A DNA stretch of 64,000 bases from Candidatus Fraserbacteria bacterium (GCA_947085185.1 CAMTVK010000007.1:32001-96000); one strand, 5' to 3'. Shown: positions 32,851-48,896, counted from the stretch's first letter. Numbers and translations: made by a program. The notes: generated from the sequence alone by a model not told the origin.

Positions 32851-33288
32851 CTACTTAGACCGAGAGCGCTCTCCCTCAATAGCTGAGAAGAGAGCGAGCA
32901 CCTTCTCCTCGATCATATCGCGCACCGTTCGATAAAATTCCAAGCCCCGCCCGATGGGGTCGGGAATCCCCCAATCCTCACTGACACCATAAAAGTCCGC
33001 GGGGCAGATATCGTAGCCTAAGCACCCCATCGCGATCACGTAGTCGAAATCACGCAGATCAAACGCAGCTACGCTCTTGGAGCGCTGGTGCGAAATATCT
33101 AGGCCCTTCTCGCGCATGACCGCGATCGCGTCGGCGTGCACATAGCCCGCTGGCTGCGTCCCTGCACTGTGAATCTCCAGATCAAGCTGGCGCTCGTGCG
33201 CGTAATGCTTCGCAAATCCTTCGGCCATCTGGCTGCGACACGAGTTGCCCACACAGACAAAGATGATCTTTTTGCGCGAAGCGTCCAT
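32851..33288 (-). CDS. arsC: arsenate reductase (thioredoxin-coupled, LMW-PTP fold)
   Basis: CVGNSCRSQMAEG P-loop plus two distal Cys (MGC..ICP) and WGIPDP. Confidence 0.85.
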   Translation of the reverse strand: MDASRKKIIFVCVGNSCRSQMAEGFAKHYAHERQLDLEIHSAGTQPAGYVHADAIAVMREKGLDISHQRSKSVAAFDLRDFDYVIAMGCLGYDICPADFYGVSEDWGIPDPIGRGLEFYRTVRDMIEEKVLALFSAIEGERSRSK

Positions 33289-33291
33289 AGC

Positions 33292-33987
33292 TTATGGAAT
33301 GTCTCTCTGTTTCTTACGCTCTTTGCGCCCGGTCACCATATACAGAGTGCGTTCGGCGATGTTGACGGCGTGATCGCCCACGCGCTCCAGATCACGAATG
33401 GACCACAAGACGGGAATGACATCGTCCACGAACTCTTTCGCTTCGGCAGGAGAGTGCGCTTCACGAGCCAGTTCGAGGAGCTTGGCCAACACCCTGCGAC
33501 GCAATTGCCAACACCGTTCGTCCATCTGCGCGTCGCGCTGAATGATCTCCTGAGCGCGTGGGGTGTCTTTGGCCACGAAAGCGCTCACGGAATCGCGCAG
33601 CATCTCGCGGGCAAACTCCCCCAGAGCCGTCAGCTCTTCTTTTGGGACGAGCACGAAGACCCCTACGTCCATCCCATATTGGCCGACGTTCACCGCAAGA
33701 TCTGCGGCGCGCTCCAAGTCCGTGATGATCTTAAAGACGCTCGTGATCACGCGCAGATCTATAGCGACGGGCTGTTGCAGCGCCAAGAGATCCATACACT
33801 CCTTCTCGATGGCGAGATTGAGCTCATCCACTTGGTCATCCCAAGCGTCGAGGCTTTCGGCCAAGGCGCGGTCGTGCTCGCGCAGGGCTTTCAAGCCCAG
33901 ATCGAGCCCTTCTAAGACTTTCTCGCCCATCTCGCGCACCGACTGCGTCAGACGCTCCAACTGCTGCTTATAGCTTTCGCGAACCAT
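33292..33987 (-). CDS. phoU: phosphate signalling protein PhoU
   Basis: QQPVAIDLR, DLERAAD, LERVGDHAVNIAE; start reassigned to MVRESY. Confidence 0.95.
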   Translation of the reverse strand: MVRESYKQQLERLTQSVREMGEKVLEGLDLGLKALREHDRALAESLDAWDDQVDELNLAIEKECMDLLALQQPVAIDLRVITSVFKIITDLERAADLAVNVGQYGMDVGVFVLVPKEELTALGEFAREMLRDSVSAFVAKDTPRAQEIIQRDAQMDERCWQLRRRVLAKLLELAREAHSPAEAKEFVDDVIPVLWSIRDLERVGDHAVNIAERTLYMVTGRKERKKQRDIP

Positions 33988-33997
33988 GAGCTCTATT

Positions 33998-34813
33998 TTA
34001 CCCAAATTTGCCCGTGATGTAATCTTCGGTCTCTTTTTTGTCTGGGGTCTCAAAGATTTTTTTCGTGGGCCCGTACTCGATCAGGCGCCCCAGATACAGA
34101 AACGCTGTAAAATCCGAGACGCGCGCGGCCTGCTGCATATTATGGGTCACGATCACGACGGTGTAGCGCTCTTTGAGCTCGAGCATCAAGTCTTCGATCT
34201 TCGCCGTAGCGATGGGATCAAGAGCCGAGCAGGGCTCGTCCATTAAGATCACTTCGGGCTCGATAGCCAACGTGCGCGCGATGCACAAGCGCTGCTGTTG
34301 CCCTCCCGACAGATCATACCCGCTCTTTTTGTGTAAATAATCTTTGACTTCGTCCCACAGGGCTGCAGCGCGCAGCGCGCGCTCGACGTGCTCGTCTAAG
34401 TTCCCCGTAAAGCCGTTAATGCGCAGCCCAAATGCGACGTTCTCGTAGATAGACTTGGGGAAGGGGTTGGGCTTCTGAAAGACCATCCCGATTCTCCTGC
34501 GGACCTCGACGGGGTCCACATCAGGGTCATAGATGTTCTTGCCGTGATAGAGCACTTCCCCACTGAGGCGCACGCCGGGGACGAGATCGTTCATGCGATT
34601 AAAACACCGGATGAGCGAGCTCTTGCCGCATCCTGACGGCCCGATGATCGCGGTGATCTTGTTCTTGGGGATGTCAAGGGTGATCGAATCGAGCGCTTGC
34701 TGTTTGCCGTACCAGAGGCTGAGCTGGCGCACCTGCAGAATAGGCTCCCCAGCGAAGTCGTTGGGGGAGATGCGAGCCTGCGGGCGCGACTGAGAGACTA
34801 TCGTCCTCTCCAT
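33998..34813 (-). CDS. pstB: phosphate ABC transporter ATPase
   Basis: [34 protein letters not shown]. Confidence 0.97.
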
Positions 34814-34817
34814 CGAG

Positions 34818-36233
34818 CTACCACCTCCTCTGAAATCGTATTCGTAAGAAGATCGCCAGGCCGTTCATCGCCAAGAGAATACTTAAGAGTACTAAAATCG
34901 CCGCGGCGGCGATGGTGGCAAAGCCGTCTTTCGCTTCGCCGATCCACGTGAAGATCTGAATGGGGATGACCGTGAAGTAGTCGCGCAGCCCGGGGATGAA
35001 CGTCAAATACTGAAAAGCTCCAAGCAAGATGAGCAGGGCCGCCTCGCCCATAGCCCGCGAGAGCGCGATAATCAAGCCCGTCAAAATCCCAGGCAAGGCG
35101 TAAGGCAACACGTGAGCGCGCACGACCTGCCAGCGCGTCGCTCCCACCGCATAGGCAGCATGACGGATCGAATCGGGGATGGTGCGCAGTGCCTCGCGAG
35201 CCGCAATGATCACCATCGGCAAGATCAAGAGCGTCATAGTCAGCGCACCGGTGATGAGCACGCGATCCATCTGGAGCGCGCGCGCTAAGATCTCCAGCCC
35301 GATGATCCCGTAGACGACCGAGGGCACGCCTGCAAGATTGACAATCAACAGCTGAATGAGATCGGTCAGCCAATTCTTGGGAGCGTACTCTTCCAGATAG
35401 AGGGCTGCGCCCACTCCCAACGGCAGGGCAAAGAGCGCCGTCAGCCCCACTAAATAGAACGACCCCACGATGGCGCTGGCCAGCCCTGCTTTTTCGGGGG
35501 AGTTGGAGTCGAAGCTCGTGAGAAACTCCCAGATAGCGCGAGCCCAACTGCGCGTGATGGGGATCTGGGCGGTCTGCTCGGCGTCGAGCATAAGTGTCAC
35601 AAGTTCTCCATCGCGCTCAACTTGCACGGTCAACGGAGCTGGCCGGGGCTTCTTCTGGGCCGCGACGATGAGCGCCTCCCAGGCTTGACGTGATCCGGTC
35701 ACGGCAATATCTTCGATCCGGACTAAAAGATCGCCGGGACGCAATCCCGCACGCCATCCCACGCTCTCTTCTGGCAAATAATCTATAGCGATGCGCATGG
35801 CGCCCGTCTGTGGGTCCATCTGGGGCACAAGATCCCCAAAGATCTGTGAGGGATCGCCGGAGATCCAGCCGACCGGGAGAGTATTATGAGGCCAGCGCGC
35901 CATGACATCCCAGACATGCGCTGAGCGAAAGACCGTCTCTGAACCGATATGGATGACCGCGTCGAATTCACTTATCCCTGAGCGGGCCGCTGCGCTCTCC
36001 GGGAGAAAATCCGTCACGATGACGTAGGGGAGATTTTGGGCATCCCATTGGATGACCATGGTGGAGAGCACAAGGCCCGCCCGCGAGGCCGCGCGCATCG
36101 CCATGAGCGGGCGCGCATTGACCAGAATATAGACGATCAGGGCGAGCAGCGCGGCGAAGCTCACGAGAAGTGTGCTGAAGGTGAGCGCGCCAAAGAGCGT
36201 GCTTTTGGTCTTGCGCCACACAAGTGAGCTCAT
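34818..36233 (-). CDS. pstA: phosphate ABC permease PstA with extracytoplasmic tandem PDZ-like insertion
   Basis: [23 protein letters not shown]; ~170-aa insertion after TM1. Confidence 0.9.
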
Positions 36234-37153
36234 TCGTATCGCTCCCGGAAGCGACGCACGATCCCATAGCTCAAGATATTCAAAAAGAGCGTCATCACAA
36301 AGAGCAGCGCGCCGATGGCGAAGATCGTGGCCCAGATGAACGCGCCGGCTTCGGCATCCCCCGTGGCAACGTTGACGATGTGCACGGTCAGGGTCTCCAA
36401 GGGCTTCAGCAGATCCGGGGGCCAGGTGGGCACCCGCCCCGCAGCAATCGCCACGATCATCGTCTCGCCGATGGCTCTGGACATCGCTAAGATAGTCGCT
36501 GCGGCGATCCCTGAGAGCGCCGCAGGCAGCACGACGGAACGAATCGTCTCGTATTTGGTCGCGCCAAGAGCATACGCGCCCTCACGGAGCTCCCGCGGCA
36601 CCGCATAGATAATATCTTCGCTCAGCGACGAGACCAACGGGATGATCGCGATCCCCAGCACGATCCCCGCGCTCAGGGCGTTCCAAAACTGAATCTCCGG
36701 GAGGATCGAGCGCAGAGCCGGCGTCACAAAGAGCAAGGCAAAATATCCATAGACGACCGTGGGGATGCCCGCTAAGATCTCCAAGAGGGGTTTGGCGATC
36801 TTCCGGACGCGCTCTGAAGCGAATTCGCTCAGATAGATGGCGCCAAGCAGCCCGATGGGGAGAGCCACAAGCAACGCGATCCCTGTAATAATCAGCGTGC
36901 CAGCGATCAACGGCAGGGCGCCGTAGGACGGGGTCGAGATATCAGTAGGGGCCCAACGCGTGCCCCATAAGAATTCCCCTAGAGAGACTTTGGCAAAGAA
37001 GATCCCAGAGCCAGAGAGCAGAAGCCAGATGGTGACTCCCGTGACGACCACAGCGAAGAACGCACAAGCGAAGAGCACCCCCTGGATGAGCCGCTCTTTG
37101 AGATACCGTCCTGGGGGCGCGTGCAGCGCGGGCCGGGTCGTTGTCAGCTTCAT
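36230..37153 (-). CDS. pstC: phosphate ABC permease PstC
   Basis: LEILAGIPTVVYG, SRAIGETM. Confidence 0.95.
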   Translation of the reverse strand: MKLTTTRPALHAPPGRYLKERLIQGVLFACAFFAVVVTGVTIWLLLSGSGIFFAKVSLGEFLWGTRWAPTDISTPSYGALPLIAGTLIITGIALLVALPIGLLGAIYLSEFASERVRKIAKPLLEILAGIPTVVYGYFALLFVTPALRSILPEIQFWNALSAGIVLGIAIIPLVSSLSEDIIYAVPRELREGAYALGATKYETIRSVVLPAALSGIAAATILAMSRAIGETMIVAIAAGRVPTWPPDLLKPLETLTVHIVNVATGDAEAGAFIWATIFAIGALLFVMTLFLNILSYGIVRRFRERYE

Positions 37154-37167
37154 GGGTGTTCTCGCTT

Positions 37168-37218
37168 CTATATAGTTTTCCCTTAAAAATTATAGCACTG
37201 GGGCTTGGGCACAGTCAA
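37168..37218 (-). promoter_or_regulatory. internal pstC promoter with CTATATAG site
   Basis: TTGACT-N18-TATAAT (37218 to 37189), extended -10 TG; CTATATAG at 37168-37175. Confidence 0.7.
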
Positions 37219-37232
37219 ATTCAGAGAAGGGG

Positions 37233-37268
37233 CTGAGCCCCCCAGCGGGGTCCTTCTGGGGGGCTCAG
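37233..37268 (-). terminator. hairpin after pstS (terminator or mRNA stabiliser)
   Basis: 13-bp perfect stem ctgagccccccag/ctggggggctcag. Confidence 0.6.
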
Positions 37269-37282
37269 GGGGTTGGAGCAGC

Positions 37283-38431
37283 TCACTTGCAGTGTTCGCC
37301 GTATTTCTTGCGGATCTCTGGGAGAGACAAGCCGGAGTAGTTGCCGCCGAAGGCCGTGCCGGCAATGCGCTTCTTCCAGCAGGTGCGGGCCTCCTCGCGC
37401 ACCTCGCGTGGGACGGGAAGATATCCGGCTTTGTTGAGCATAAACTGCTGATTGCCCAAACGAGCCTCATCAAGATAGAAGTTAATGAAGTCGTCCACGG
37501 CGGGGCGCTCCCCGCTCTTCTTATTGACATAGATGAAGAGCGGGCGACTCAGCGGCTGGTAGCTGAACGCCAAGATCGTATCTACCGTGGGCAGGACGCC
37601 CTTGCACTGGCCGCCCTTGTTTTCGAGAGGCTTTTTGCCGTTCTTGGCGCGCCGAGCATTGAGCTCTTTGAGGACGTCTTCCGGGGCGCTGATCAGATCG
37701 CGGCGCGGGTCGAGCGCTACAGCTTGCACAAACTGGGTATTGTGCACGAAGAAGTTATACCCAAAGTACGTGAGGGCATAGGGGTTGTTGCCGGTCTGTT
37801 GAGCCAAGAGCTGGTCTTCTTCGGTGCCGAAGTAATCTTGTCTGGTGTCGCCCTCTCTCCCGTTGATCGCCGACGTGAAGAAGTCAAAAGTTCCGGAGGT
37901 TTCGGCGGCGCCGGAGAGCGTGATCTCCGCGTTGGGGAAGGTGCTGCGCACCTGGTTCCATTTGGTGATGAATTTTTCTGATTCTTTGGCCCACAGCAGC
38001 TCCAGCTCCCCCACGGTCATGCAGACGGGAGCGGTGCCGAAGATCTTTGTATCTTTGCTGACGGCCACGGTCAGGCCGTCCAGAGCAATCAGAAGCTCAA
38101 TATACTCGATAGCGTTCTTCGCTGCCGTCTCGATCTCAGATGCTTTGATAGCACGCGAGGCGTTGCTGATGTCGGTCTCGCCGACGACGAAGCGCCGAAA
38201 GCCTCCCGACGTCCCACTGACGGCTACAGTGACGTTGATATCGGGTCGGACTTTTTTGAACGCCTCGGCCATGGCCTTGGTGATTGAGGCGGCGGTGCTC
38301 GAGCCATCGGAGAGTATACTCTTTGAATCTTTGGGGGCCCCAGGCTGCCCCACCACCGACAAGACGACCGAGCCGACGACCAACCACGCGACGAATGCCA
38401 CGCGTCTCACTAGAGATGCGCTAAATTTCAT
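37283..38431 (-). CDS. pstS: phosphate-binding protein PstS
   Basis: DGSST, SGTSGGF, DISNASR, SGTFDFF, YQPLSRPLFIYVN. Confidence 0.93.
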   Translation of the reverse strand: MKFSASLVRRVAFVAWLVVGSVVLSVVGQPGAPKDSKSILSDGSSTAASITKAMAEAFKKVRPDINVTVAVSGTSGGFRRFVVGETDISNASRAIKASEIETAAKNAIEYIELLIALDGLTVAVSKDTKIFGTAPVCMTVGELELLWAKESEKFITKWNQVRSTFPNAEITLSGAAETSGTFDFFTSAINGREGDTRQDYFGTEEDQLLAQQTGNNPYALTYFGYNFFVHNTQFVQAVALDPRRDLISAPEDVLKELNARRAKNGKKPLENKGGQCKGVLPTVDTILAFSYQPLSRPLFIYVNKKSGERPAVDDFINFYLDEARLGNQQFMLNKAGYLPVPREVREEARTCWKKRIAGTAFGGNYSGLSLPEIRKKYGEHCK

Positions 38432-38445
38432 ACTTTTCCTCCTTT

Positions 38446-38513
38446 TAGTATAGTTTACTTACGATCTATATAGATCGCACCATAAGTATACACGAGGGGG
38501 AGAGGCGTGTCAA
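38446..38513 (-). promoter_or_regulatory. pstS promoter with palindromic operator
   Basis: TTGACA-N17-TATACT (38513 to 38485); perfect palindrome CGATCTATATAGATCG at 38462-38477. Confidence 0.75.
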
Positions 38514-38533
38514 GTCGGGGGAGGCAATAAAAT

Positions 38534-39277
38534 TTACTCGATCAGTTGGACAAGTTCGCGCAGGTCCGCCACGCGCGCGCACGGGTGCTCTTCAGGAGGC
38601 ACCCCCTCAGGAACCCCCAGCCCCAACCGCCCAGGGAAGAAGCGGTCCTTCAGATTGGGCCGCTCGATCCATACCGCATGCAGGCCCGCCCGCCGCGCCC
38701 CACGCACGTCCGTCTCAAAGTCATCTCCCACATGCAGCGCGTCGTGAGGCGCTACACCCGCTCGCTCCAAGAGCACCGCCCAAAAAGCCCGATCCGTCTT
38801 GCCGTGCGCGATCCCCGTAGAATCAGGACTGGCCCGCCAGCGAAAGAATTTTTTGAGCCCATGCTTCTCTAAAGAGCGCTCGATCCCCACGATCGGCCGA
38901 TGCGACACAATCCCTAACTCTATCCCGCGCCGACGCAGCATCTCTAATGCCCCACGCACATCAGGGAAAACCTCATCCACCGGGGCCTCCCAGTATCGTT
39001 GTATCTCTTGGGCGACTGGGGTGAGATCGCCGTCGAGCCCAAGCTCCCCCAAGATCAGTGCGTTCCATGCAACAAACGACTCCGTGCTGAACCCCAAGCG
39101 CGGGCGGACCTCGCGCTGCCATCGCTCTTGCGCCCGATGATACGCCCGAGCAAGCTGATCCCGATCGAGCGCCACCCCCAACTCTGTGAGCTTCTCATAG
39201 AACCAGTCGGCCTGACCGCTGCCAGGCACCCAGACGAGCGTCCCGTCCATGTCGAAAAAGATAGCCCTCACGTGCAT
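38534..39277 (-). CDS. HAD family hydrolase
   Basis: FFDMDGTL, IVS, K, HVGDD..TD. Confidence 0.88.
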   Translation of the reverse strand: MHVRAIFFDMDGTLVWVPGSGQADWFYEKLTELGVALDRDQLARAYHRAQERWQREVRPRLGFSTESFVAWNALILGELGLDGDLTPVAQEIQRYWEAPVDEVFPDVRGALEMLRRRGIELGIVSHRPIVGIERSLEKHGLKKFFRWRASPDSTGIAHGKTDRAFWAVLLERAGVAPHDALHVGDDFETDVRGARRAGLHAVWIERPNLKDRFFPGRLGLGVPEGVPPEEHPCARVADLRELVQLIE

Positions 39278-39283
39278 ACGTGC

Positions 39284-40855
39284 TCACCCTTCGATGAGTC
39301 TCTTGCGGATGCGCGCGCTCAGAAAATCAATAGCCATCACGGTGGGGATGATCACGACCAGACAGATCCCCACAATGTTCCATGCCCGGTACGATTGCGC
39401 TTCGTTGATGAGCGACCCGATCCCTCCGGCCCCTACGATGCCCAGCACCGACGCGGCCCGAACGTTGATCTCAAATCTATAGAGAAAGAGTGCCAAGAAT
39501 TCGGGAAGCACCTGGGGCAAGACCGCATAGCGAAAGACCTGCACCCGAGATGCTCCCACCGACTGAAGCGCTTCTACGGGCTCTTTGCGAATCTTTTCGA
39601 CGATCTCGGCATTAAATTTCCCCAGCATCCCGATGGAGTGAATGGCGATGGCCAAGACCCCCGGCAGCGGCCCTGGCCCAAACGTCGCAATGAAGAAGAT
39701 CGCCAGGATCAATTCGGGAAAAGCCCGAATGATATTAGGGATCTGCTTCATCCCCATCGCGATGGACTGAGGCACCCCCACATGGCGCCGCGACGCCAAA
39801 AACCCCAAGGGCAACGACAAGAGAAAACTGATCGTCGTGCCCACCAGCGCGATCTGTAAGGACTGCACCATGCGCTGCACAGCTAATTCAAAAAACTCGG
39901 TGGCCGGATCGGTCACGATCGCCCACAGAAGATTTCGAAAATATTCGATCCCGAGAACCAGCCGAGCGAAGTCCACCTCCAGTGACACAAAGGACCACAC
40001 GATCACAGCACCAGCGACACTCGAGCCAAGAAGGCGCAGCGGGCGCGGCAAGACGATCCCATGTACGAACGCATCGCGCATGCGGTTGGCTATGAGGTCA
40101 ATCACGATAACCAGCGCGAAGATCAGCAGCGCGATCGTCAAGACTTGGGGATAGTTGCGCCACTCCATAGCCGTCGTCAGCTGCATCCCCATGCCCCCCG
40201 CCCCAACATACCCCATCACTGCCGAGACGCGCACATTGAGCTCAAAGACATAGATGACATGATCGACAAACGCGGGGATGAGTTGGGGCAGCACGGCATA
40301 GCGAATGACGTGGAGCCTGCCCGCGCCCACGGCTTCGACCGCTTCGATGGGCTTGGGATTGATATTGTCCGCAGATTCGGAAGTGAGCTTGGCGATGATC
40401 GCACAGGCGAAGAACGAGAGCGCCCCAACCCCGGCCGCCGGCCCAAACCCCATAGCCGCCACAAACAAGACCGCATAGAGCAAATCAGGGATGGTGCGCA
40501 GGACGTTCATAATCGTGCGCACCGGCCAATAGATCAGAGCGCTGCGCACGACCAGTTGTGACCCAAAGACGACCAACGGCAAGGCCAGGAGCGCCCCAAA
40601 GAACGTCCCCAAGGTCGCCATCTGGAGCGTCTGCAGCAGCGGACGCACTAACTGCGGGAGCGCTGAAAAATCCGGGGGATACATGCGCCCCAGCAGCTCA
40701 AAGAACCTCCCGCCGTACTTCACTACAGAGAAGAGATCGAACTCGACGCCTTGGAGCGCCCACCCATAGAGGGCAATGAGCAGCGCTATCCCAGCCCATG
40801 CCCCCAGGCGCCTCAACCCAACCGCCCGCCTAGCCCCCTCCGTCCACTGTACCAT
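39284..40855 (-). CDS. phnE: phosphonate/phosphite ABC permease, fused double PhnE
   Basis: Two permease repeats (RTIPDL/RAFPEL; ELNVR..G.VGAGG twice); start uncertain. Confidence 0.88.
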   Translation of the reverse strand: MVQWTEGARRAVGLRRLGAWAGIALLIALYGWALQGVEFDLFSVVKYGGRFFELLGRMYPPDFSALPQLVRPLLQTLQMATLGTFFGALLALPLVVFGSQLVVRSALIYWPVRTIMNVLRTIPDLLYAVLFVAAMGFGPAAGVGALSFFACAIIAKLTSESADNINPKPIEAVEAVGAGRLHVIRYAVLPQLIPAFVDHVIYVFELNVRVSAVMGYVGAGGMGMQLTTAMEWRNYPQVLTIALLIFALVIVIDLIANRMRDAFVHGIVLPRPLRLLGSSVAGAVIVWSFVSLEVDFARLVLGIEYFRNLLWAIVTDPATEFFELAVQRMVQSLQIALVGTTISFLLSLPLGFLASRRHVGVPQSIAMGMKQIPNIIRAFPELILAIFFIATFGPGPLPGVLAIAIHSIGMLGKFNAEIVEKIRKEPVEALQSVGASRVQVFRYAVLPQVLPEFLALFLYRFEINVRAASVLGIVGAGGIGSLINEAQSYRAWNIVGICLVVIIPTVMAIDFLSARIRKRLIEG

Positions 40856-41615
40856 AGATGTCTTCTTCAAAGGTCTCGCGGTTGATCTCGGTGATGGGCT
40901 TGTCGTAGATGACCCGCCCGCCCTTGAGCCCGATGATCCGTCGGCCGTATTTGAACGTCAAGACCGGATCGTGCAAATTCACAATCGTCGTGATGCCCTC
41001 GTCTTCGTTGATCTTCTTAAAAATGCTCATGACGACGTTGGCCGTGATGGGGTCAAGTGAGGCGACGGGCTCATCAGCGAGGATGAGCTTAGGTCTTTGC
41101 AGCAGGGCGCGGGCGATCCCCACGCGCTGTTTCTGGCCGCCCGACAGCCGCGCCGCACGATCGAGATGGCGCAGTTGTGGAATCCCCACGCGCACCAGGG
41201 CGTGGTGCGCTCGCTCGATCTGATCCGCTGGGAACCTCCCCAGCAGAGCGCGCCAAAACCCCACTTGCGTGAGCGACCCCACAAGAGCGTTGGTCAACAC
41301 CGGCAGCCGCTCCACGACGTTATACTCTTGAAAGATGAAGCCGATGCGCGAGCGGATCTCGCGGAGTCTGCGAGAAGAGACACGCAGCACATCGGTGCCC
41401 TCGAAGTAGATCTCGCCCTCGACACGCGCATGATCGTTCTCCGTCAGACGATTGATCGCGCGCAAGAGCGTGGATTTCCCTGAACCTGAGACCCCAGCGA
41501 CGACCACAAACTCTCCTGGATAGATCTCTATATTGACGTTGTCGAGGGCTTGGACGGGGCGCACCCCTGGGTAGATCACGGTGAGGTTGCGTATGCGCAA
41601 GATAGGCGCAGCCAT
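40830..41615 (-). CDS. phnC: phosphonate ABC ATPase
   Basis: GVSGSGKSTLLRAINRL, LSGGQKQRVGIARAL, ADEPVASLDP, NLH. Confidence 0.9.
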   Translation of the reverse strand: MAAPILRIRNLTVIYPGVRPVQALDNVNIEIYPGEFVVVAGVSGSGKSTLLRAINRLTENDHARVEGEIYFEGTDVLRVSSRRLREIRSRIGFIFQEYNVVERLPVLTNALVGSLTQVGFWRALLGRFPADQIERAHHALVRVGIPQLRHLDRAARLSGGQKQRVGIARALLQRPKLILADEPVASLDPITANVVMSIFKKINEDEGITTIVNLHDPVLTFKYGRRIIGLKGGRVIYDKPITEINRETFEEDIYGTVDGGG

Positions 41616-41692
41616 GTCTCTATTCTAGAGAATCGTGGGAGAAGGAGCACAAAAGAGGGGATAGGGCAGACTCCCCATCCCCTCAGTCGCAT

Positions 41693-42718
41693 TTACTGAT
41701 TCTCGCACTTGGCCAGGTTCGGCTGGATCTCTTTCGCGACGACGCGCACCGCTTCGAGAGCTTTGAGCATATCATAGCCCTCGGGGACGGGGACAAAATC
41801 GGTCGCGTCGAGCGCGTCCTTGGCGTATTTCTTGCCCTCTTCGGTCTTCATGATCTCGACGAACGCCCGTTTGATCGCCTCGCGCAGCTTGGCATCAAGG
41901 GCTTTGATGGCCACGACGCCATCGTTGGGGATGTCATCGCTATAGCCGATGACACGGACCTTGGTGCTGGGCTCGGGATCACCGGGTTTCCAGCCGAGCT
42001 CTTTTTTGGTCTGCTCGGTGTTGAGGCTCTCGCGCACATCCTCGAAGCCCGCGCCGACGTCCACATCTCTCTTATAGACAGCAATTGCTGAAGCCAAGTG
42101 ATTGGCCGCGCGGATCGTCTTGAAATTCTTGTAATCCCCCGGCAGAATCCCCAAGTCTTTGAGAGTCTTACACGGGAAGAGAAATCCTGATGTCGACGTA
42201 GAGCTGCCGCCGTAGCTGAACCGCACGGGAGCTCCAGACCTCACCAGACTCACTAAATCATCCTTGGGGTCCTGGTTGTCATCCTTGAGGGCTTTGAGGG
42301 GGCTATCTACGTGCACCATGAACTGGGAGCGGAACGTGAGCTTATCGCCGCGCTTGGTGACGCCAATGGGGATCGCTCCGTAGCTATCGATCACCTGAAC
42401 GATCTGAAACGGCCCCAACAACCCAATATGAATCTTTTCTGCACCGATGGCTTCGATGGTCGCGGTGTAGGACTCGGGGATGACGGCGCGCACGCGCTTC
42501 ACTTGCGAGAACCCGTTCTTCTGGACATAGTCGAGGACAAGCTTGGCCAACCCTTCGACTGGGGGCTGCAAGATCGTGGCCGCTCGCGACGGCACCATGC
42601 CCACGACGAGCTCTTCAGGGATCAGCCCCTGCTGCGACGCCCCAGGGAAGCTCACCCCAAAGCTCCCTACCAACACCCCGACCACCACCACCCCCGCCAG
42701 ACCGACAAGACGACGCAT
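41693..42718 (-). CDS. phnD: phosphate/phosphite/phosphonate-binding protein
   Basis: Signal peptide, STSTSGFLFP, IPNDG. Confidence 0.85.
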   Translation of the reverse strand: MRRLVGLAGVVVVGVLVGSFGVSFPGASQQGLIPEELVVGMVPSRAATILQPPVEGLAKLVLDYVQKNGFSQVKRVRAVIPESYTATIEAIGAEKIHIGLLGPFQIVQVIDSYGAIPIGVTKRGDKLTFRSQFMVHVDSPLKALKDDNQDPKDDLVSLVRSGAPVRFSYGGSSTSTSGFLFPCKTLKDLGILPGDYKNFKTIRAANHLASAIAVYKRDVDVGAGFEDVRESLNTEQTKKELGWKPGDPEPSTKVRVIGYSDDIPNDGVVAIKALDAKLREAIKRAFVEIMKTEEGKKYAKDALDATDFVPVPEGYDMLKALEAVRVVAKEIQPNLAKCENQ

Positions 42719-42743
42719 ACTCCCTACCTCCTCACGAAAGGAT

Positions 42744-42820
42744 ATTTATAGTTATGCGCTTTTCTATATATCAAGCGCATTTTCACTATAATTATACCCG
42801 AGAGGGCGCGCTCCTGTCAA
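42744..42820 (-). promoter_or_regulatory. phnD promoter with CTATATA site
   Basis: TTGACA-N18-TATAAT (42820 to 42791); CTATATAT at 42764-42771 inside inverted repeat atgcgctt/aagcgcat. Confidence 0.7.
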
Positions 42821-42932
42821 ATTGGGGGGGAAACGCCAAAATATCGCATAGAATCGGCGTTATTAGCTCGTATCTCTGCCATTGTAATGCCTATCATAGT
42901 CAGCGCCCTGGGGAGCTGATATACTCTGGCCC

Positions 42933-43589
42933 ATGAGGGCATCGACCGCAAAAACGCTCGTCTGTGTGCTCACCGCAATCTGTGTGCTTGGGTGGGGCCA
43001 GGCCGCCCAGAGCCAACCCAAGCGCTTTTTAGTCGTGATTGACGCTGGGCATGGCGGTTGGGACCCCGGCGCCGTGGGCTACTACGGCACCCAAGAGAAA
43101 GAGATCAATCTCAATATCGCTCGATTCATTCGGCTCTTGGGACTCTACGACGACGAGATCTCTATCGTTCTGACGCGCTCCGAAGATATTTATATTCCCC
43201 ATCGGGAGCGCACCGGGCTGGCCAACCGTCTGCGGGCCGATCTCTTTGTGAGTATTCATGCCAACGCCCACCCCACAAGCCCTGCCGCCAACGGCATCGA
43301 AGTCTTAGTCCACGACGATACGACTCTCCCCACCTACCCCCAGAGCCGTTCTCTCGCGTTGTTGTTCCAGCAGCGCCTCACGCGCGCTCTGGGCGTCACC
43401 GACCGAGGGATCAAACACCAACGGCTCTTTATCCGGTGGGCGCAGATGCCCGCCGTACTCATCGAGACGGGCTTTCTCACCAACCCCCAAGAAGAGCTCA
43501 AACTGCGCAGTCTTCTCTATCAGTGGACCGTCGCCCAAGTGATCTTCAACACGATTAAAGAGTATCTACGCACCACGAAGGCGCGCTAA
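42933..43589 (+). CDS. N-acetylmuramoyl-L-alanine amidase (Amidase_3)
   Basis: IDAGHGG, EK, SIHANA, LIETGF. Confidence 0.92.
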   Translation: MRASTAKTLVCVLTAICVLGWGQAAQSQPKRFLVVIDAGHGGWDPGAVGYYGTQEKEINLNIARFIRLLGLYDDEISIVLTRSEDIYIPHRERTGLANRLRADLFVSIHANAHPTSPAANGIEVLVHDDTTLPTYPQSRSLALLFQQRLTRALGVTDRGIKHQRLFIRWAQMPAVLIETGFLTNPQEELKLRSLLYQWTVAQVIFNTIKEYLRTTKAR

Positions 43590-44384
43590 GACTATACGCG
43601 CTATATTTGCTGCCACAAAGATCCCTAAAGCCACCAAGACGATCGTCGGCCCGGGCTGTGTGTCCAGATAGTATGAACTGACCAGCCCCCCATAGACGGA
43701 GAGCAGGCCACATCCAATCGCTGTGAAAAACGCTTGACGGAAGCTGCGCGCAACCTGCAACGCCGCCGCCACCGGCAAGACCAACAACGCTGAGATCAAC
43801 AACAGCCCAACGATCTGAATGGCCGAGACGACCGTGAGCGCCGCCAACACGACCAATAAAATATTATAAACCCCCACGCGAATCCCCGACGCACGCGCTG
43901 TCTCTTCATCAAACGTGATAAAGAAGAGCTCACGACGCACCAAGAAGAGCATCAGCAAGACCACGGCTGCAATCACGGCGATCTGCATCACATCGTTGAC
44001 CCGAAGGGTGATCACGCTGCCGAAGAGATAGCTCCATAATTGATCCGTAGAACGCCGCGCCACCCGAGCCAAGACCAATCCCAGCGCCAACCCCGACGAG
44101 AGAAAGATCGCGATGGCGACATCGCCACCCAAGCGCCCTTTCGCCCGCAATCGCTCCATCCCCAACGCAGCTACCACCGAACACCCCAACGCCATGAGCA
44201 TGGGGTCGGCCCTCACAAGCTGCCCAAACGCCACCCCGCCAAACGCGATGTGCCCCAAGCCGTCGCCGATCAGGCCGTAGCGCCGCAAGACCAAAAAGAG
44301 CCCGATCGTCGGGGCAAGCACCCCCATGATCGTCCCACCGATAAACGCCAGCCGCATGAACTCAAACGCAAAAATATCCAACAT
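43566..44384 (-). CDS. znuB: Zn ABC permease
   Basis: GDGLGHIAFGG, YLFGS, FDEETA, VGLLLISALL. Confidence 0.9.
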   Translation of the reverse strand: MLDIFAFEFMRLAFIGGTIMGVLAPTIGLFLVLRRYGLIGDGLGHIAFGGVAFGQLVRADPMLMALGCSVVAALGMERLRAKGRLGGDVAIAIFLSSGLALGLVLARVARRSTDQLWSYLFGSVITLRVNDVMQIAVIAAVVLLMLFLVRRELFFITFDEETARASGIRVGVYNILLVVLAALTVVSAIQIVGLLLISALLVLPVAAALQVARSFRQAFFTAIGCGLLSVYGGLVSSYYLDTQPGPTIVLVALGIFVAANIARIVLARLRGA

Positions 44385-44404
44385 CGTCCTCCCGGCTCGC
44401 TTGA

Positions 44405-44492
44405 GAATCACGGAAGGCACGGAATGGCCACGGAGTACACGGAAGAAGGTTTTCAGTGACTTCCGTGGGATCTCCAGTGCCTTCCGTGATTC
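44405..44492. repeat. palindromic intergenic element with CACGGA repeats
   Basis: 16-bp inverted repeat gaatcacggaaggcac/gtgccttccgtgattc; CACGGA at 44409, 44418, 44429, 44438. Confidence 0.75.
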
Positions 44493-44496
44493 AAAC

Positions 44497-45231
44497 TCAT
44501 CCCCACGGATGCCGATGCCGCACGAGCTTGCGTCCCGTATAGACTCTCTCTAAAAGATCGCTCGCTAAGCACTCTTGCAGCGTCCCGCAAAAGAGCAGCC
44601 TTCTATTCAGACACGCGATCTTCGTCACCTCGGTGACGACCGCTTCAATGTCATGCGAGACCAAGACGATCGTCAAGCCCTGCTCCCGACTGAGCCTTCC
44701 CAAGAGCGCATAGAACTCCGCTTCGGCGTTGGGGTCCACAGAAGCTGTGGGCTCATCCAACAGCACGAGCTCTGGCTCTTGGGCCAGAACGCGAGCAAGA
44801 AAGACGCGCTGTTGCTGCCCCCCCGACAGCTCGCTGATGGGGCGAGCCCGCAGGTCTTCAAGGTGCACAGCGCGCAGGGCCCGCTCCACCGCAGCGCTGT
44901 CGGAGGCGCTCCATCGTCCCCAGCGCAAGCGCGGCACCCGCCCCATGCGCACGATCTCTTCTACTGATGCTGGGAAATTGCGCTCAAAGTCCCAGCTGCG
45001 CTGGCGCATGTAGCCGACCGAAGAGCGCTCGCACAAGACCCAAACCCTCCCACGCTGAGGCTCAAGCACCCCGGCGATGAGCTTGAGCAGCGTGGTCTTG
45101 CCTGAGCCGTTGGGCCCGATCACCCCGAGAATATCTCCCCGCTGGACGGTGAGGGAGACGTCCTCGAGCACCGGCTCTGCGCCATAGCTGAACCAGAGAT
45201 GTTCAATCGAGAGAATGGGCTTCATGAGCAC
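44497..45231 (-). CDS. znuC: Zn ABC ATPase
   Basis: [29 protein letters not shown]. Confidence 0.9.
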
Positions 45232-46121
45232 TCCAGCCCGATCCGCAGATTTTTCAGATTCTCCTCCATGAGCGTCAGATAGTTCTTCCCGGCGCGCTCT
45301 TCTTCGTCGGTCAGGCCCTCGATAGGGTCGAGAGTCAAGATCTGCGCGCCGAGCTCTCGTGCCAAGACTTCCAGCGCTTTAGGTCTTTCGAGCTTCTCGG
45401 CAAAGAGATACTTGATCCCCAGACGCCTGCCCAATTCGATCAGTTCTCTGAGTCGTTGGGGCGTGGGCTCGCCCGGCTCCAGCCCCGACAGCGCGTGAGC
45501 CGTCAGACGATAGCGCGCGGCAAAGTACTCCAAAAACCGATGCGAGATGATCAGATCACGCAGCCGGCAGTTCGCCAACCCTTGCTCGATCTTTGCGTCG
45601 AGCGCGTCCAGTTTCTCTTGATAGCTTCGGGCGTTCGCCTCATAGACAGATCGACCGGCGCCATCGGCTTGGATGAGCCCATTCTTGATGTTCGTCACCA
45701 TCCCTTTGGCTAAGATGGGATCGAGCCAGACGTGCGGATCGAACGTAAATTCTTCTTCGTCTTCGGGGGCTTTCCGCAGCGGCAGCCCCTGCGTCGCTTC
45801 AATGACGACCAACTTGTCGCGATTTCTGACGGCTCCCAGAATCTCTTGGGCCAACTTGGTGTCCATATCGGCTCCGTTGTAGACGAAGACCTGGGCGGCT
45901 TCGACGGCTCGGATGTCCGCAGGCGTGGGCTCATAATCGTGCGAGTCCGCCCCGGGCGGCACCAAGACCTTCACCGAGACTCGATCGCCCCCGACTTGCG
46001 CAGTGAACTCATAGGGGATATAGAAGCTCGCGACCACATTGACCTTCTGCTGCGCAGCGAACCCCCAGGCTGCAATCGCGGTGAGCAGCCCCATCAACAG
46101 TACAGACTTTTTGAACGACAT
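45222..46121 (-). CDS. znuA: Zn ABC substrate-binding protein
   Basis: HDYEPTP, DPHVWLDP, SH, LDPIE. Confidence 0.9.
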   Translation of the reverse strand: MSFKKSVLLMGLLTAIAAWGFAAQQKVNVVASFYIPYEFTAQVGGDRVSVKVLVPPGADSHDYEPTPADIRAVEAAQVFVYNGADMDTKLAQEILGAVRNRDKLVVIEATQGLPLRKAPEDEEEFTFDPHVWLDPILAKGMVTNIKNGLIQADGAGRSVYEANARSYQEKLDALDAKIEQGLANCRLRDLIISHRFLEYFAARYRLTAHALSGLEPGEPTPQRLRELIELGRRLGIKYLFAEKLERPKALEVLARELGAQILTLDPIEGLTDEEERAGKNYLTLMEENLKNLRIGLECS

Positions 46122-46133
46122 CTGCGTACCTCC

Positions 46134-46152
46134 TTATTGAAAATTGTTTTCA
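46134..46152. promoter_or_regulatory. Zur box upstream of znuA
   Basis: ttatTGAAAA-ttg-TTTTCA. Confidence 0.7.
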
Positions 46153-46176
46153 TTTGGTGCGATATAAAAAATGCGC

Positions 46177-46599
46177 TCATCTCTTCTTGCAATCAGGGCA
46201 TAACCCCATCACCTCCACCCGATGTTGGCTGATTTGGAAGCCGGTCTCTGCAGAGATCTCTTGCAGGGGCAACGCGCAGTCAGCCAACTCTTCTACTCGT
46301 CCGCAGTCTTGACAGATCACCTGATGATGGTGGCCTTCACCGTTGGTCGAGTCCGTGCGGGCGAAACTATGACACCCGTCGTTCAGATGAACGCGCTGCA
46401 CCAGTCCAAGCTCGTGCAGGAGCGCCAGCGTCCGGTAGACCGTGACCAGCCCGATCTTTCTATAGCGTCGCCGCGCGCGACGGTAGAGCTCCTCTGGGGT
46501 CAGGTGGGCCCGGCTCGATGCTAACGCTTCCAACACGGCGCGACGGGGCTGGGTCACCCTGTAGCCCTTCGCCTGGAGCTGAGTTATGAGATCATCCAT
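46177..46599 (-). CDS. zur: Fur-family regulator, probably Zur
   Basis: RVTQPR, TVYRTL, HHHQVICQDCG, CPDC; adjacent to znuACB; start MDDLIT. Confidence 0.85.
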   Translation of the reverse strand: MDDLITQLQAKGYRVTQPRRAVLEALASSRAHLTPEELYRRARRRYRKIGLVTVYRTLALLHELGLVQRVHLNDGCHSFARTDSTNGEGHHHQVICQDCGRVEELADCALPLQEISAETGFQISQHRVEVMGLCPDCKKR

Positions 46600-46612
46600 A
46601 AGCTCTCCCTTC

Positions 46613-46665
46613 TTATTGAAAAGTATTTTCAGTTTCATTATACCCACCCCCATCCCCCTTGTCAA
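46613..46665 (-). promoter_or_regulatory. zur promoter plus Zur box
   Basis: TTGACA-N17-TATAAT (46665 to 46637); ttatTGAAAA-gta-TTTTCA at 46613-46631. Confidence 0.75.
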
Positions 46666-46670
46666 GGCAC

Positions 46671-46700
46671 TTGACGATCTATATAGCTATATATTACAAT
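46671..46700 (+). promoter_or_regulatory. promoter of the AbrB-PhoU regulator with tandem CTATATAK in its spacer
   Basis: TTGACG-N18-TACAAT; CTATATAG-CTATATAT at 46679-46694. Confidence 0.7.
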
Positions 46701-46728
46701 GCAGCAATCACGATAGATGGGAGAAGCT

Positions 46729-47718
46729 ATGGAGACCCGAAGAGTGCAGATCACCGGCGGCGCAACGTTCATGATCACGCTGCCTAAAGAGTGGGCAGAA
46801 GCGCAAAAACTCCATGCGGGCGCGGAGATCGAGCTCCACCCCCACGACCCCGATCTCTTGATCTTACGCCCGCATCGTGACTCCAAACCCACACGGGGGG
46901 TCTTGGCCCTCGACGCCAAGACGGGCGATGCCCTCATGCGCGCGTTCATCTCGATGTACGTCGCAGGCTTCGATATCATCGAGGTGCGCGGCGAGCGCAT
47001 CACCCCAGAACAACGCCAGACCATCAGAAAAGTCACACAAGCCCTCATCGGTCCGGAGATCATGGAAGAATCCCGAGATTCGATCATCATTCACAATCTG
47101 CTCAACCTCGCTGAGCTCTCTGCCCCCAAGACGCTCGAGCGCATCTTCCTGATGGTGCACGACATGTTCGCCGACGCGGTGCGCGCCGCGGCAGAGCACG
47201 ACGCCGAGCTGGCCCACGACATCGTGGCCCGCGATGAGGACGTGGACCGGCTCTATCTCATGCTCTATAGACAGTTTCGCATCGTCCTGCGCGATCTGTT
47301 GGCTGAGGAAGCCGCGGGGGTCAGTCGCCTCAAGCTCTTTGATATCCACACCGTGGCGCGCCAGCTCGAGCGTGTGGCCGATCATGCGGTCAAGATCGCC
47401 CATGTGACGACGTCTCTGGAGGAGGCGCCTCCCCTCAAAGTCGCCGAGGCCTTGCGCAAGGGCGGCGACCAGGTCAACACACTCTTGCGAGAGTCTGTAG
47501 AGGCGTTCCGCACGGCCACCCCCACCCTCGCCAGTCAAGTCATCGACACCGCTTTAGGGATGGAAGAACGCCTGAGAAAGGCCGTCAAACTCCTGTGGAA
47601 CTTGGACCCTCACGAAGCTCAGCTCATCGGGATCGCCTTCGACAGCATCGGGCGCGTCAAAGACTATTCGATCAACATAGCCGAAACGGCCCTCAACACA
47701 TCAGTCCCCATGCCCTAG
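46729..47718 (+). CDS. archaeal-type phosphate regulator (AbrB/MazE DNA-binding domain plus PhoU repeats)
   Basis: METRRVQITGGATFMITLPKEW (AbrB-like), YVAGFDII, RDEDVDRLY, LERVADHA, RVKDYSINIAE. Confidence 0.88.
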   Translation: METRRVQITGGATFMITLPKEWAEAQKLHAGAEIELHPHDPDLLILRPHRDSKPTRGVLALDAKTGDALMRAFISMYVAGFDIIEVRGERITPEQRQTIRKVTQALIGPEIMEESRDSIIIHNLLNLAELSAPKTLERIFLMVHDMFADAVRAAAEHDAELAHDIVARDEDVDRLYLMLYRQFRIVLRDLLAEEAAGVSRLKLFDIHTVARQLERVADHAVKIAHVTTSLEEAPPLKVAEALRKGGDQVNTLLRESVEAFRTATPTLASQVIDTALGMEERLRKAVKLLWNLDPHEAQLIGIAFDSIGRVKDYSINIAETALNTSVPMP

Positions 47719-48758
47719 AACGACTCCCACTCGATAGGCCCACTGAAGTCCGGCAGACTGTCAGCCGTCACAGGCACCGAAGCCCGATAGATCGTAGGAA
47801 TGGGCACCTCCGTCCCAACGCGATAGATATAGACCCGCGCTTGGTCATCGATCGTGTGTCGGAAGTACTCGACGATCAGTTTGAACTTCTGGAGGAGCAA
47901 GGGCTTGCGGCGCTGGCTGCGCGTGATCGCTTCGTTGATATAGAGCTGACTGTCGGCGATATACGCCGAATACGTCACGGCAAAGTCTTCGTATTGATTG
48001 GTCATGGCGTAGAGCGACCGATCGATGGGGTCGCGCGCGAAGTTATCGGGATCTCGTCCGGACTCTTGGAAGAGTTTCTCCCAGCGCTCTCCTTGATCTG
48101 TGGTCGAGCGGGTGAAGTGCACCAGGTGCCCAAGCTCATGAAACGCCACGAGGGTGAAGGTACGGCCGGCGCGCAGGCCGGGAAGCTCAATGAGACCAGG
48201 TGGGAAATACTGCCCATAGAGATAGATATTGGGTTCGCGGGCGCGGATCTCGCGCAGGCGCCTGAGATGGTCGCCAGGGAGCGAGCGCAAGACGCCATAG
48301 AGCTGCTGACAGTGCAGATCTTCGAGCTCCGTGCCGATCTCGTAGCTCACTTTCACTCTATACTGAGCAGAGATCTCTTTACAGAAGCGTCGAGGGTAAG
48401 TGAGCTCGAGGCGTCCTTCCACGGTTTGTTGGCCGAGATTCGTTACGATCAAGCGCCAGGGCCGGCCCACATCAGCTTCGGTGACTTGGGTCTTGGCGGT
48501 AGCTGAGCCCGTTTGGTCTACGACGGCTTTGTTGTCTAAAAAGAGCTGCACTCGGATGGTCATGGAATAGGGGTGCAGGGAGAGCTTCAGAGTAATCTCG
48601 CCCGTCGTAGTTGGGAGAAAATCGTACTCGAACTTCTCTTGGGATCTGAGGGAGAGCTCGCTGGAGCGCGCGGTGATCGTAGCGCTTGTGGGCAGGAGCG
48701 CGCCCCAGATCAAGAGCATAGCAAGCAAGAGCGTGGGAGCAAGTCGAGTCCGTGTCAT
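47715..48758 (-). CDS. secreted putative zincin metallopeptidase
   Basis: Signal peptide; HELGH plus downstream YAMTN.YEDFA. Confidence 0.65.
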   Translation of the reverse strand: MTRTRLAPTLLLAMLLIWGALLPTSATITARSSELSLRSQEKFEYDFLPTTTGEITLKLSLHPYSMTIRVQLFLDNKAVVDQTGSATAKTQVTEADVGRPWRLIVTNLGQQTVEGRLELTYPRRFCKEISAQYRVKVSYEIGTELEDLHCQQLYGVLRSLPGDHLRRLREIRAREPNIYLYGQYFPPGLIELPGLRAGRTFTLVAFHELGHLVHFTRSTTDQGERWEKLFQESGRDPDNFARDPIDRSLYAMTNQYEDFAVTYSAYIADSQLYINEAITRSQRRKPLLLQKFKLIVEYFRHTIDDQARVYIYRVGTEVPIPTIYRASVPVTADSLPDFSGPIEWESF

Positions 48759-48896
48759 AAGAGCCATCTCCTTTCTCGTGAGGTTAGAGTTATCTTAGCA
48801 CAGAGTCTTCGGGAGTGCACGGGGAGAGGGTTCTCAGGGGAGCATGTTTGTGTTATAATGACGCAAGACGAGAAACAGACAAAGGAGCAACACACA

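Follow-up and report, generated by a model that had tools for sequence, protein, structure and literature searches.

A box shared by phosphate promoters of a Bipolaricaulota bacterium as the candidate operator of an archaeal-type AbrB-PhoU repressor

Introduction

Phosphate control in bacteria is taught as activation by the two-component system PhoBR, in which PhoU serves as an adaptor of poorly understood biochemistry. A 64,000-nucleotide stretch of a Candidatus Fraserbacteria genome (GCA_947085185.1, CAMTVK010000007.1:32001-96000) raises the question of whether a single protein may do this work instead, since it carries pst and phn transporter genes, a gene for a fusion of AbrB and PhoU domains, and one short box, CTATATAG, at four promoters. 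This whole stretch, called the window below, is G000:C7:32001-96000 of a genome (G000) that belongs to the phylum Bipolaricaulota, is 1.72 Mb in size and is 96.8% complete; positions are counted from its first letter. An earlier note on this DNA had proposed that the fusion protein is an autoregulated repressor of the pst and phn genes that acts through the box without PhoBR. We found the box to be conserved at the promoters of pstS, pstC, phnD and the regulator gene, and we consider it quite probable, from sequence comparison, that it serves as the operator of an autoregulated AbrB-PhoU repressor replacing PhoBR.

Box sites and their promoter context

All box sites of the earlier note were present, with CTATATAG at 37168-37175 (pstC), 38466-38473 (pstS) and 46679-46686 (regulator) and the variant CTATATAT at 42764-42771 (phnD) and 46687-46694 (regulator), and the four promoters were indeed near-consensus sigma70 promoters, each with TTGAC in the -35 element. 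Relative to inferred start sites, the box lies at about +5 in the pstS promoter (minus strand, 38485-38513; TTGACA-17-TATACT, -35 at 38508-38513, -10 at 38485-38490), 11 nucleotides (nt) after the -10; at about +7 in the internal pstC promoter (minus strand, 37189-37218; TTGACT-18-TATAAT, -35 at 37213-37218, -10 at 37189-37194), 13 nt after the -10; and at about +13 in the phnD promoter (minus strand, 42791-42820; TTGACA-18-TATAAT, -35 at 42815-42820, -10 at 42791-42796), 19 nt after the -10. In the regulator promoter (plus strand, 46671-46700; TTGACG-18-TACAAT, -35 at 46671-46676, -10 at 46695-46700), the box occupies the -35/-10 spacer and is followed by the second, weaker copy in tandem.

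Other regularities claimed for these sites survived in part. The perfect 16-base-pair (bp) palindrome at pstS (38462-38477) is real, but its arms behave like an mRNA hairpin, and the tandem at the regulator is present, but its second copy has decayed in some orthologues and is gone from 1/12. Thirteen bases are common to pstS (38461-38473) and the regulator (46674-46686), but they include the end of the regulator -35 and are not kept in orthologues, so that this identity was dropped as separate evidence. The partial copies 20 bp downstream of the boxes at pstS (38446-38453, beside the ribosome-binding site) and phnD (42744-42751) are separate and conserved, but the partial copy at pstC (37188-37195), 20 bp from the box on its upstream side, is the -10 hexamer and was likewise dropped.

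The specificity of the box comes from its promoter context, and the word alone proves little. Exact CTATATAG occurs three times in the window against 0.17 expected, a number reached in 1/100 shuffles; genome-wide it is not rare, with 22 copies in 1.72 Mb (42 if a T variant is included), and the 7-mer is found in 14 of 840 upstream regions versus 6.1 in shuffles. When only sigma70-like promoters were considered, the box was present in 4/97 under a strict and 4/286 under a loose definition, the four being those of pstS, pstC, phnD and AbrB-PhoU, and in 6/1282 under a still looser pattern. The motif is thus not equally common at unrelated promoters, 93 of the 97 comparable ones being without it. 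Two kinds of additional sites in the genome were rejected as regulon members: a spacer site at C1:84697, which is absent in an orthologue of 88% identity, and other intergenic 7-mers, which precede genes without evident link to phosphate.

These counts bear on the possibility that the box is promoter or RNA anatomy and not an operator, either as a -10-like, AT-rich word that eases melting or as the apex of a 5' mRNA hairpin. CTATATA does resemble TATAAT and TATACT and overlaps the -10 in distant relatives, the pstC "copy" is itself a -10, and a DUF4384 gene elsewhere in the genome has a conserved CTATATA that coincides in part with its likely -10. The leaders of pstS and phnD also fold around the box (hairpin z -2.5 for pstS). 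At pstS the palindrome arms vary yet stay complementary, with 4/8 pairs changed on both sides, a result equalled by 0/500 shuffles, which is not a probability because the 12 sequences are related. From these compensatory changes and the folding, the pstS arms are likely to form a 5' mRNA hairpin that coincides with the box, rather than to belong to the word that is recognised; a look-up of RNA holders returned none for positions 37100-39300. Against an anatomical role of the box itself, however, 93 of 97 equally good promoters do without it, the pstC leader does not fold (z +0.67), the regulator box lies in an untranscribed spacer, the haloarchaeal box described below lies upstream of TATA, and the box is common to two transcription machineries only at phosphate genes. 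We therefore regard this explanation as highly improbable and continue with the box as a candidate operator.

Conservation of the box in Bipolaricaulota

The earlier proposal would predict that orthologous promoters keep the box, and the core was kept throughout the orthologues of family f1: at pstS in 12/12 (the 7-mer), at pstC in 13/13 (the entire box), at phnD in 12/12 (TATATAG) and at the regulator in 12/12, with nearly fixed offsets from the -10. In the transporter promoters of this family the -35/-10 spacer drifts while the box stays invariant, and in the regulator promoter, itself kept in 12/12, the box is invariant and always starts 22 nt before the end of the -10. The companion unit at +20 is kept in 11/20 orthologous pstS promoters and 11/12 orthologous phnD promoters, and 10/12 of the latter have a third unit at -20. 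The pstC box is present in all 13 loci of family f1, each with an internal -10, and in genome G024, and is missing in 11 other loci.

A blind pattern, consisting of a sigma70-like promoter plus a downstream box, was used for a motif scan of the genome and its relatives, with the reversed pattern as a control. In 14 genomes of the same genus there were 32 matches (30 verified by script and 2 by coordinates), of which 32/32 were at pstS, pstC or phnD, and the control gave none. Over 121 genomes of the phylum, 40 matches were obtained in 22 genomes, and 35/40 were at pst or phn genes (11/16 outside the genus).

On this sequence evidence, the box tracks gene function rather than descent, because it is present at a pstS of unrelated type and because it occurs at PstS but not at TupA-like genes. 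Specifically, the unrelated pstS, in genome G014, carries the box 11 nt after the -10, the same offset as in the window (family f9 pstS genes also have it at this offset), and in the phylum's 30 best PBP_like_2 loci the 7-mer was found at 11/20 PstS genes versus 0/10 TupA-like genes, a label that we base on a motif presumed to be diagnostic. For the regulator, 48 loci of the phylum were tried and 42 could be parsed (6 could not); the exact 7-mer precedes 28/42 of these genes, and 37/42 when variants are included. In addition, the regulator promoters of L102, L107, L108, L112, L114, L118, L120, L123, L132, L133 and L147 were found to have CTATAT(C/T)GATATA right after the -10, replacing CTATATAG.

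The AbrB-PhoU protein and the question of PhoBR

The candidate one-component regulator (plus strand, 46729-47718) is a fusion of 329 amino acids (aa) in which Pfam MazE_antitoxin (residues 8-52) and PhoU (residues 137-225) both score above cut-off, and its nearest Atlas clusters have the same domain pair. A structural model (predicted local distance difference test score 88.5) contains the PhoU helical bundle and matches solved PhoU structures; neither Foldseek with this model nor a profile search against solved structures found a full-length fusion, all significant matches being to stand-alone PhoU. Bacterial and haloarchaeal proteins have in common residues R4, T9, G10, G11, T13, P19 and K20 of the N-terminal hairpin. 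Of the two PhoU repeats, the first keeps the acidic motif (D169/D173 and E214/D218), the second only in part, where we take the metal-binding pairs of PhoU to be E/D-x3-D. A complex prediction of the regulator with stand-alone PhoU returned a score of 0.00, which is no answer and was used neither for nor against binding.

The closest relatives of the regulator are Bipolaricaulota/Acetothermia proteins, and 103/121 genomes of the phylum have a single full-length copy. The statement of the earlier note that AbrB-PhoU fusions are typical of archaea agrees with the nearest Atlas clusters, which are 88-100% archaeal, but has to be widened, as the fusion is also found phylum-wide in Bipolaricaulota and in a clade with names of Patescibacteria.

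As for PhoBR, no PhoB/PhoR pair tied to pst was found. G000 encodes three full OmpR-family response regulators and one protein with the DNA-binding domain only; none of them was over the PhoB cut-off and none lies beside pst. TIGR02154 (PhoB) gave 0/41 genomes over cut-off, a weak test in which only 2/14 control genomes pass. No PhoR over cut-off or linked to pst was found in G000, where the best PhoR-like match is a 1094-aa GAF-3xPAS hybrid kinase and another PAS kinase has no OmpR-family neighbour. A search for 11-bp Pho-box direct repeats with four consensus words gave none at pstS, pstC or phnD and one weak match upstream of the regulator. Promoter anatomy, that is, consensus -35 elements and no 11-bp repeats at the transporter promoters, is a stronger argument than the PhoB scan.

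Another protein might nevertheless read the box, for example, the Fur-family protein encoded divergently from the regulator, one of the three full OmpR-family response regulators, or an unlinked factor, as the pairing of box and AbrB-PhoU protein rests on their co-occurrence. The Fur-family gene, however, is associated with another inverted repeat of its own, ahead of the znu genes; control archaea have no Trans_reg_C match, yet haloarchaea carry the box; the box is found at the promoter of the AbrB-PhoU gene itself in three distant lineages; and its palindromic shape fits an AbrB dimer and not the direct repeats of PhoB-type proteins. The Fur-family and OmpR-family proteins were judged unlikely readers, and a reader other than AbrB-PhoU appears very unlikely overall. 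It is likely, from these comparisons, that these bacteria control phosphate uptake with a single archaeal-type repressor instead of PhoBR.

The same word in haloarchaea and in Patescibacteria-like loci

In the genome collection, the nearest named homologues outside Bipolaricaulota are haloarchaeal, with 40-45% identity over 329 aa (some records titled Thermotogae fall inside the Bipolaricaulota clade and were treated as part of it); the other homologues with labels come from Methanolobus, Methanocella and Thermoplasmata. In haloarchaea, the word or a close variant precedes 44/57 regulator genes, mostly 18-19 nt ahead of a TATA-like TTTA, and the word precedes 45/47 pstS genes versus 7/559 other genes. 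Some haloarchaeal loci also contain a second, divergent AbrB-PhoU paralogue (L136:3080-4084, L131:1251-2273 and L159:3969-4925), and the copy in L159 has an upstream box.

A second bacterial clade with the fusion has named members in Parcubacteria, Buchananbacteria, Levybacteria and Kaiserbacteria. In a midpoint-rooted tree of 48 selected rows, this Patescibacteria-named clade is sister to the Bipolaricaulota proteins (97/93 support), its branch being long. Metagenome loci were assigned to Patescibacteria by protein similarity, and 21 of 80 were used, namely those with at least 38% identity whose upstream DNA sufficed; a duplicate and a short locus were excluded. In many of these loci the regulator and pstS-pstC-pstB are transcribed divergently, and the word is found ahead of pstS as well as of the regulator. 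In the regulator upstream regions, TATATA has 91 copies versus 18.5 in dinucleotide shuffles, is present in 21/21 of these regions versus 8/51 other intergenic regions, which are less AT-rich, and has a modal spacing of 20 bp (15/47 pairs). Among the metagenome loci L314-L368, many regulator genes start a few bases after TATATA without a Shine-Dalgarno sequence, which suggests leaderless mRNAs. Several of the divergent intergenic regions contain TTATCCACA, which presumably resembles a DnaA box.

An archaeal origin of the bacterial AbrB-PhoU protein is likely. We also lean slightly towards a broader proposal, in which a one-component AbrB-PhoU phosphate regulon exists in Bipolaricaulota and part of Patescibacteria, protein and DNA word passed jointly from one domain of life to the other, the operator moved from activating positions upstream of TATA to repressing positions at sigma70 promoters, and PhoU acts directly on DNA.

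Predicted mode of action

In the proposed mechanism, AbrB-PhoU would block RNA polymerase at the four promoters when phosphate is plentiful and release them when it is scarce. Swapped-hairpin dimers of the AbrB type would read the AT palindrome, and two or three dimers may sit on one face of the helix, an arrangement suggested by the spacing of the units, which lie two helical turns apart. A protein bound between -35 and -10, over the -10 or just past the start site would exclude sigma70 polymerase, and the regulator gene would repress itself. The least certain step is that the PhoU half senses phosphate, either directly at its acidic metal site or by relay from Pst through stand-alone PhoU.

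Repression is the likely sign because the bacterial sites overlap or follow the promoter: of those inspected, some fall between -35 and -10, others overlap the -10, and the rest follow the inferred start by no more than about 30 nt; no conserved site upstream of the -35 was seen in family f1; and a protein bound between the -35 and the start codon normally represses a sigma70 promoter. Moreover, the consensus -35 boxes of the four promoters suggest that no activator is needed.

Several observations weigh against this reading. Five of the 40 phylum matches precede unrelated genes (Clp ATPase, methionyl-tRNA synthetase, DeoR, PadR and one without Pfam match), the exact 7-mer is missing at 9/20 other PstS promoters and 14/42 regulator promoters, and the regulator promoters of family f10 carry a different-looking version just after the -10. 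Related genomes are non-independent samples, and the resemblance of the core to a -10 hexamer, which it overlaps in many distant genomes, could inflate the counts there. The low sensitivity of the PhoB cut-off leaves room for a divergent PhoP-like protein. The haloarchaeal boxes lie upstream of TATA, while the bacterial boxes sit on or past the promoter, and haloarchaeal pho-boxes are reported to be essential for upregulation (in a passage of PMC6560208 that summarises Furtwangler 2010); a protein that binds DNA at low phosphate would, by plain occlusion, give the wrong sign in bacteria. Three resolutions are conceivable: an allosteric sign that differs between the domains of life, a protein that changes state without leaving the DNA, or an archaeal mechanism other than simple activation.

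This tension also underlies the alternative that AbrB-PhoU reads the box without acting as a plain repressor under phosphate control: it might remain bound and switch state, act as a dual regulator, or respond to another signal, such as metal, arsenate or transporter flux. Besides the position of the haloarchaeal sites (18-19 nt upstream of TATA for most regulator genes) and their reported requirement for induction (PMC6560208, in the part concerned), the second PhoU repeat, which is without part of the acidic motif, and the presence of arsC in the pstC operon speak for it. The inspected bacterial sites, however, are in positions that by established knowledge normally repress, the consensus -35 boxes require no activator, and family f1 is without a conserved site upstream of the -35. 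We consider such an alternative rather unlikely.

Comparison with known systems

The system works like the haloarchaeal pho-box system, with a protein of that family, differs from it in a positional feature, and is not a PhoBR regulon. Published haloarchaeal systems include pst1/pst2 of Halobacterium salinarum, where, in the passages concerned, pho-boxes are described as binding motifs of a PhoU regulator (PMC6560208), and PhoU2 of Haloferax volcanii (HVO_2374), described in part of PMC6267482 as a PhoU with a DNA-binding domain. Also from partial accounts, a PhoU homologue of M. maripaludis rises under phosphate limitation (PMC2723118) and deletion of phoU alters growth of H. salinarum (PMC5605881). 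Protein architecture (40-45% identity), CTATATAG before pstS and the regulator, and a regulator often beside pst are common to both sides, as is a stand-alone PhoU, the bacterial copy being 37-47% identical to the haloarchaeal one. In contrast, the bacterial host uses sigma70 promoters, with sites on or downstream of the promoter and not upstream of TATA, and haloarchaeal pstS has a half-site at +11 whereas the bacterial companion unit lies at about 20 bp. The identity of the word with the published haloarchaeal pho-box is deduced from position and gene set.

PhoBR/PhoPR of Escherichia coli and Bacillus subtilis have the same targets, pstSCAB, phoU and a phnCDE-type transporter, and presumably the same signal. 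They differ in using a kinase and a response regulator where a single protein is predicted here, 11-bp direct repeats instead of a palindrome, and weak promoters under activation instead of consensus -35 promoters under predicted repression. PhnF, a GntR-family protein, represses phn genes on top of a two-component system; it likewise acts at phosphonate-transport promoters, but its fold and operator are unrelated and it is local to phn. Among AbrB/MazE repressors, the AbrB-fold proteins MazE of E. coli and VapB2 of R. felis recognise the palindrome ATATAT, and MazE acts as a repressor of its own promoter (PMC4333400, in the relevant part). The DNA-binding family, an AT-only palindrome, several sites and, by prediction, repression of the own promoter recur here. 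A toxin-binding tail in those proteins is replaced by a middle alpha/beta domain and a PhoU bundle, separate operons would be controlled, and their word ATATAT contrasts with a core in the register TATATA with C/G flanks.

A full-text literature search, with thin coverage of subscription journals, found no description of such a regulon in bacteria, and by term search AbrB, MazE, SpoVT and archaea were absent from the main text of a 2026 survey of bacterial PhoU-type regulators (PMC13170248, main text only). What the locus suggests is phosphate control without a kinase, a PhoU domain being joined straight to a DNA-binding domain, throughout the phylum and probably also in Patescibacteria. Since the promoters are of the consensus sigma70 type, the system can be rebuilt in E. 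coli, and two questions become testable, namely, which protein reads the archaeal pho-box and what the PhoU domain senses. With regulator and operator common to archaea and bacteria and the geometry changed, this is a clean case; if true, the same protein-DNA pair would work with opposite geometry on two unrelated transcription machineries.

Gene organisation and additional observations

The minus-strand order is phnD-like, phnC, phnE and a HAD hydrolase, then pstS, then pstC-pstA-pstB-phoU-arsC; beyond this block come an amidase and a Fur-family/znu block, followed by the plus-strand gene for the 329-aa regulator. The phnD-like gene (41693-42718) encodes a phosphate/phosphite/phosphonate-binding protein that is over the TIGR01098 cut-off and below the PhnD equivalog cut-off. 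It is followed, all on the minus strand, by phnC (40830-41615) and a double-domain phnE from 39284 (together 39284-41615; TIGR02315 and TIGR01097 above cut-off), the HAD-family hydrolase gene as the last of the phn operon (38534-39277), pstS (37283-38431; TIGR02136 above cut-off) and the pstC-pstA-pstB-phoU-arsC(LMWPc) operon behind the pstC promoter (32851-37153). A GC-rich hairpin 3' of pstS (minus strand, 37233-37268; -29.7 kcal/mol, with 0/200 shuffles folding as well), similar to hairpins that occur in relatives, is likely a terminator or 3' stabiliser of pstS, and would explain the separate pstC promoter.

PhnJ, the marker looked for as C-P lyase, was not found in G000, nor were PiT, alkaline phosphatase or a Na/Pi cotransporter, and PPK1 gave only a sub-threshold match. 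Without PhnJ, and with a HAD hydrolase beside the Phn-type transporter (38534-42718), a phosphonate may not be the substrate of this transporter, which could instead take up phosphite, phosphate or a phosphate ester. As PiT, the Na/Pi cotransporter, alkaline phosphatase and PhnJ are missing from the search results, phosphorus seems to enter mainly through Pst and the Phn-type transporter, and the phosphate regulon of G000 appears small.

The arsC/LMWPc gene (32851-33288) lies directly behind phoU and is likely to be co-transcribed from the boxed pstC promoter; in L096, an ars cluster is situated between pstS and the regulator. PstA (34818-36233) has 471 aa, with PDZ-like insertions ahead of the permease domain. 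PstC, PstA, PstB and the stand-alone PhoU (33292-37153) are 44-64% identical to haloarchaeal proteins over their best local matches, in a comparison with haloarchaea and not with other bacteria, and the Pst transporter module may share its history with the regulator.

On the other side of the regulator promoter, the Fur-family/znu promoter has an inverted repeat, TGAAAA-n3-TTTTCA, at 46617-46631, after its -10 (46637-46642); it is kept in relatives and is likely a Zur-type operator. A convergent gene at 47715-48767, overlapping the regulator stop codon by 4 bases, encodes a secreted protein with a weak match to Peptidase_Mx1 (zinc metallopeptidase).

Finally, a gene for a secreted 475-aa DUF4384 protein (G000:C2:223082-224590, L169; relatives L203-L208), 85-94% identical within the genus and without known link to phosphate, has CTATATA overlapping the likely -10 in G000 and in 5/5 relatives. 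It is possibly a fifth target of the regulator, or the word is merely a -10 look-alike. Its leader contains, after CTATATA, a conserved stem enclosing a GGAGGTGA-like word and may be a structured RNA element.

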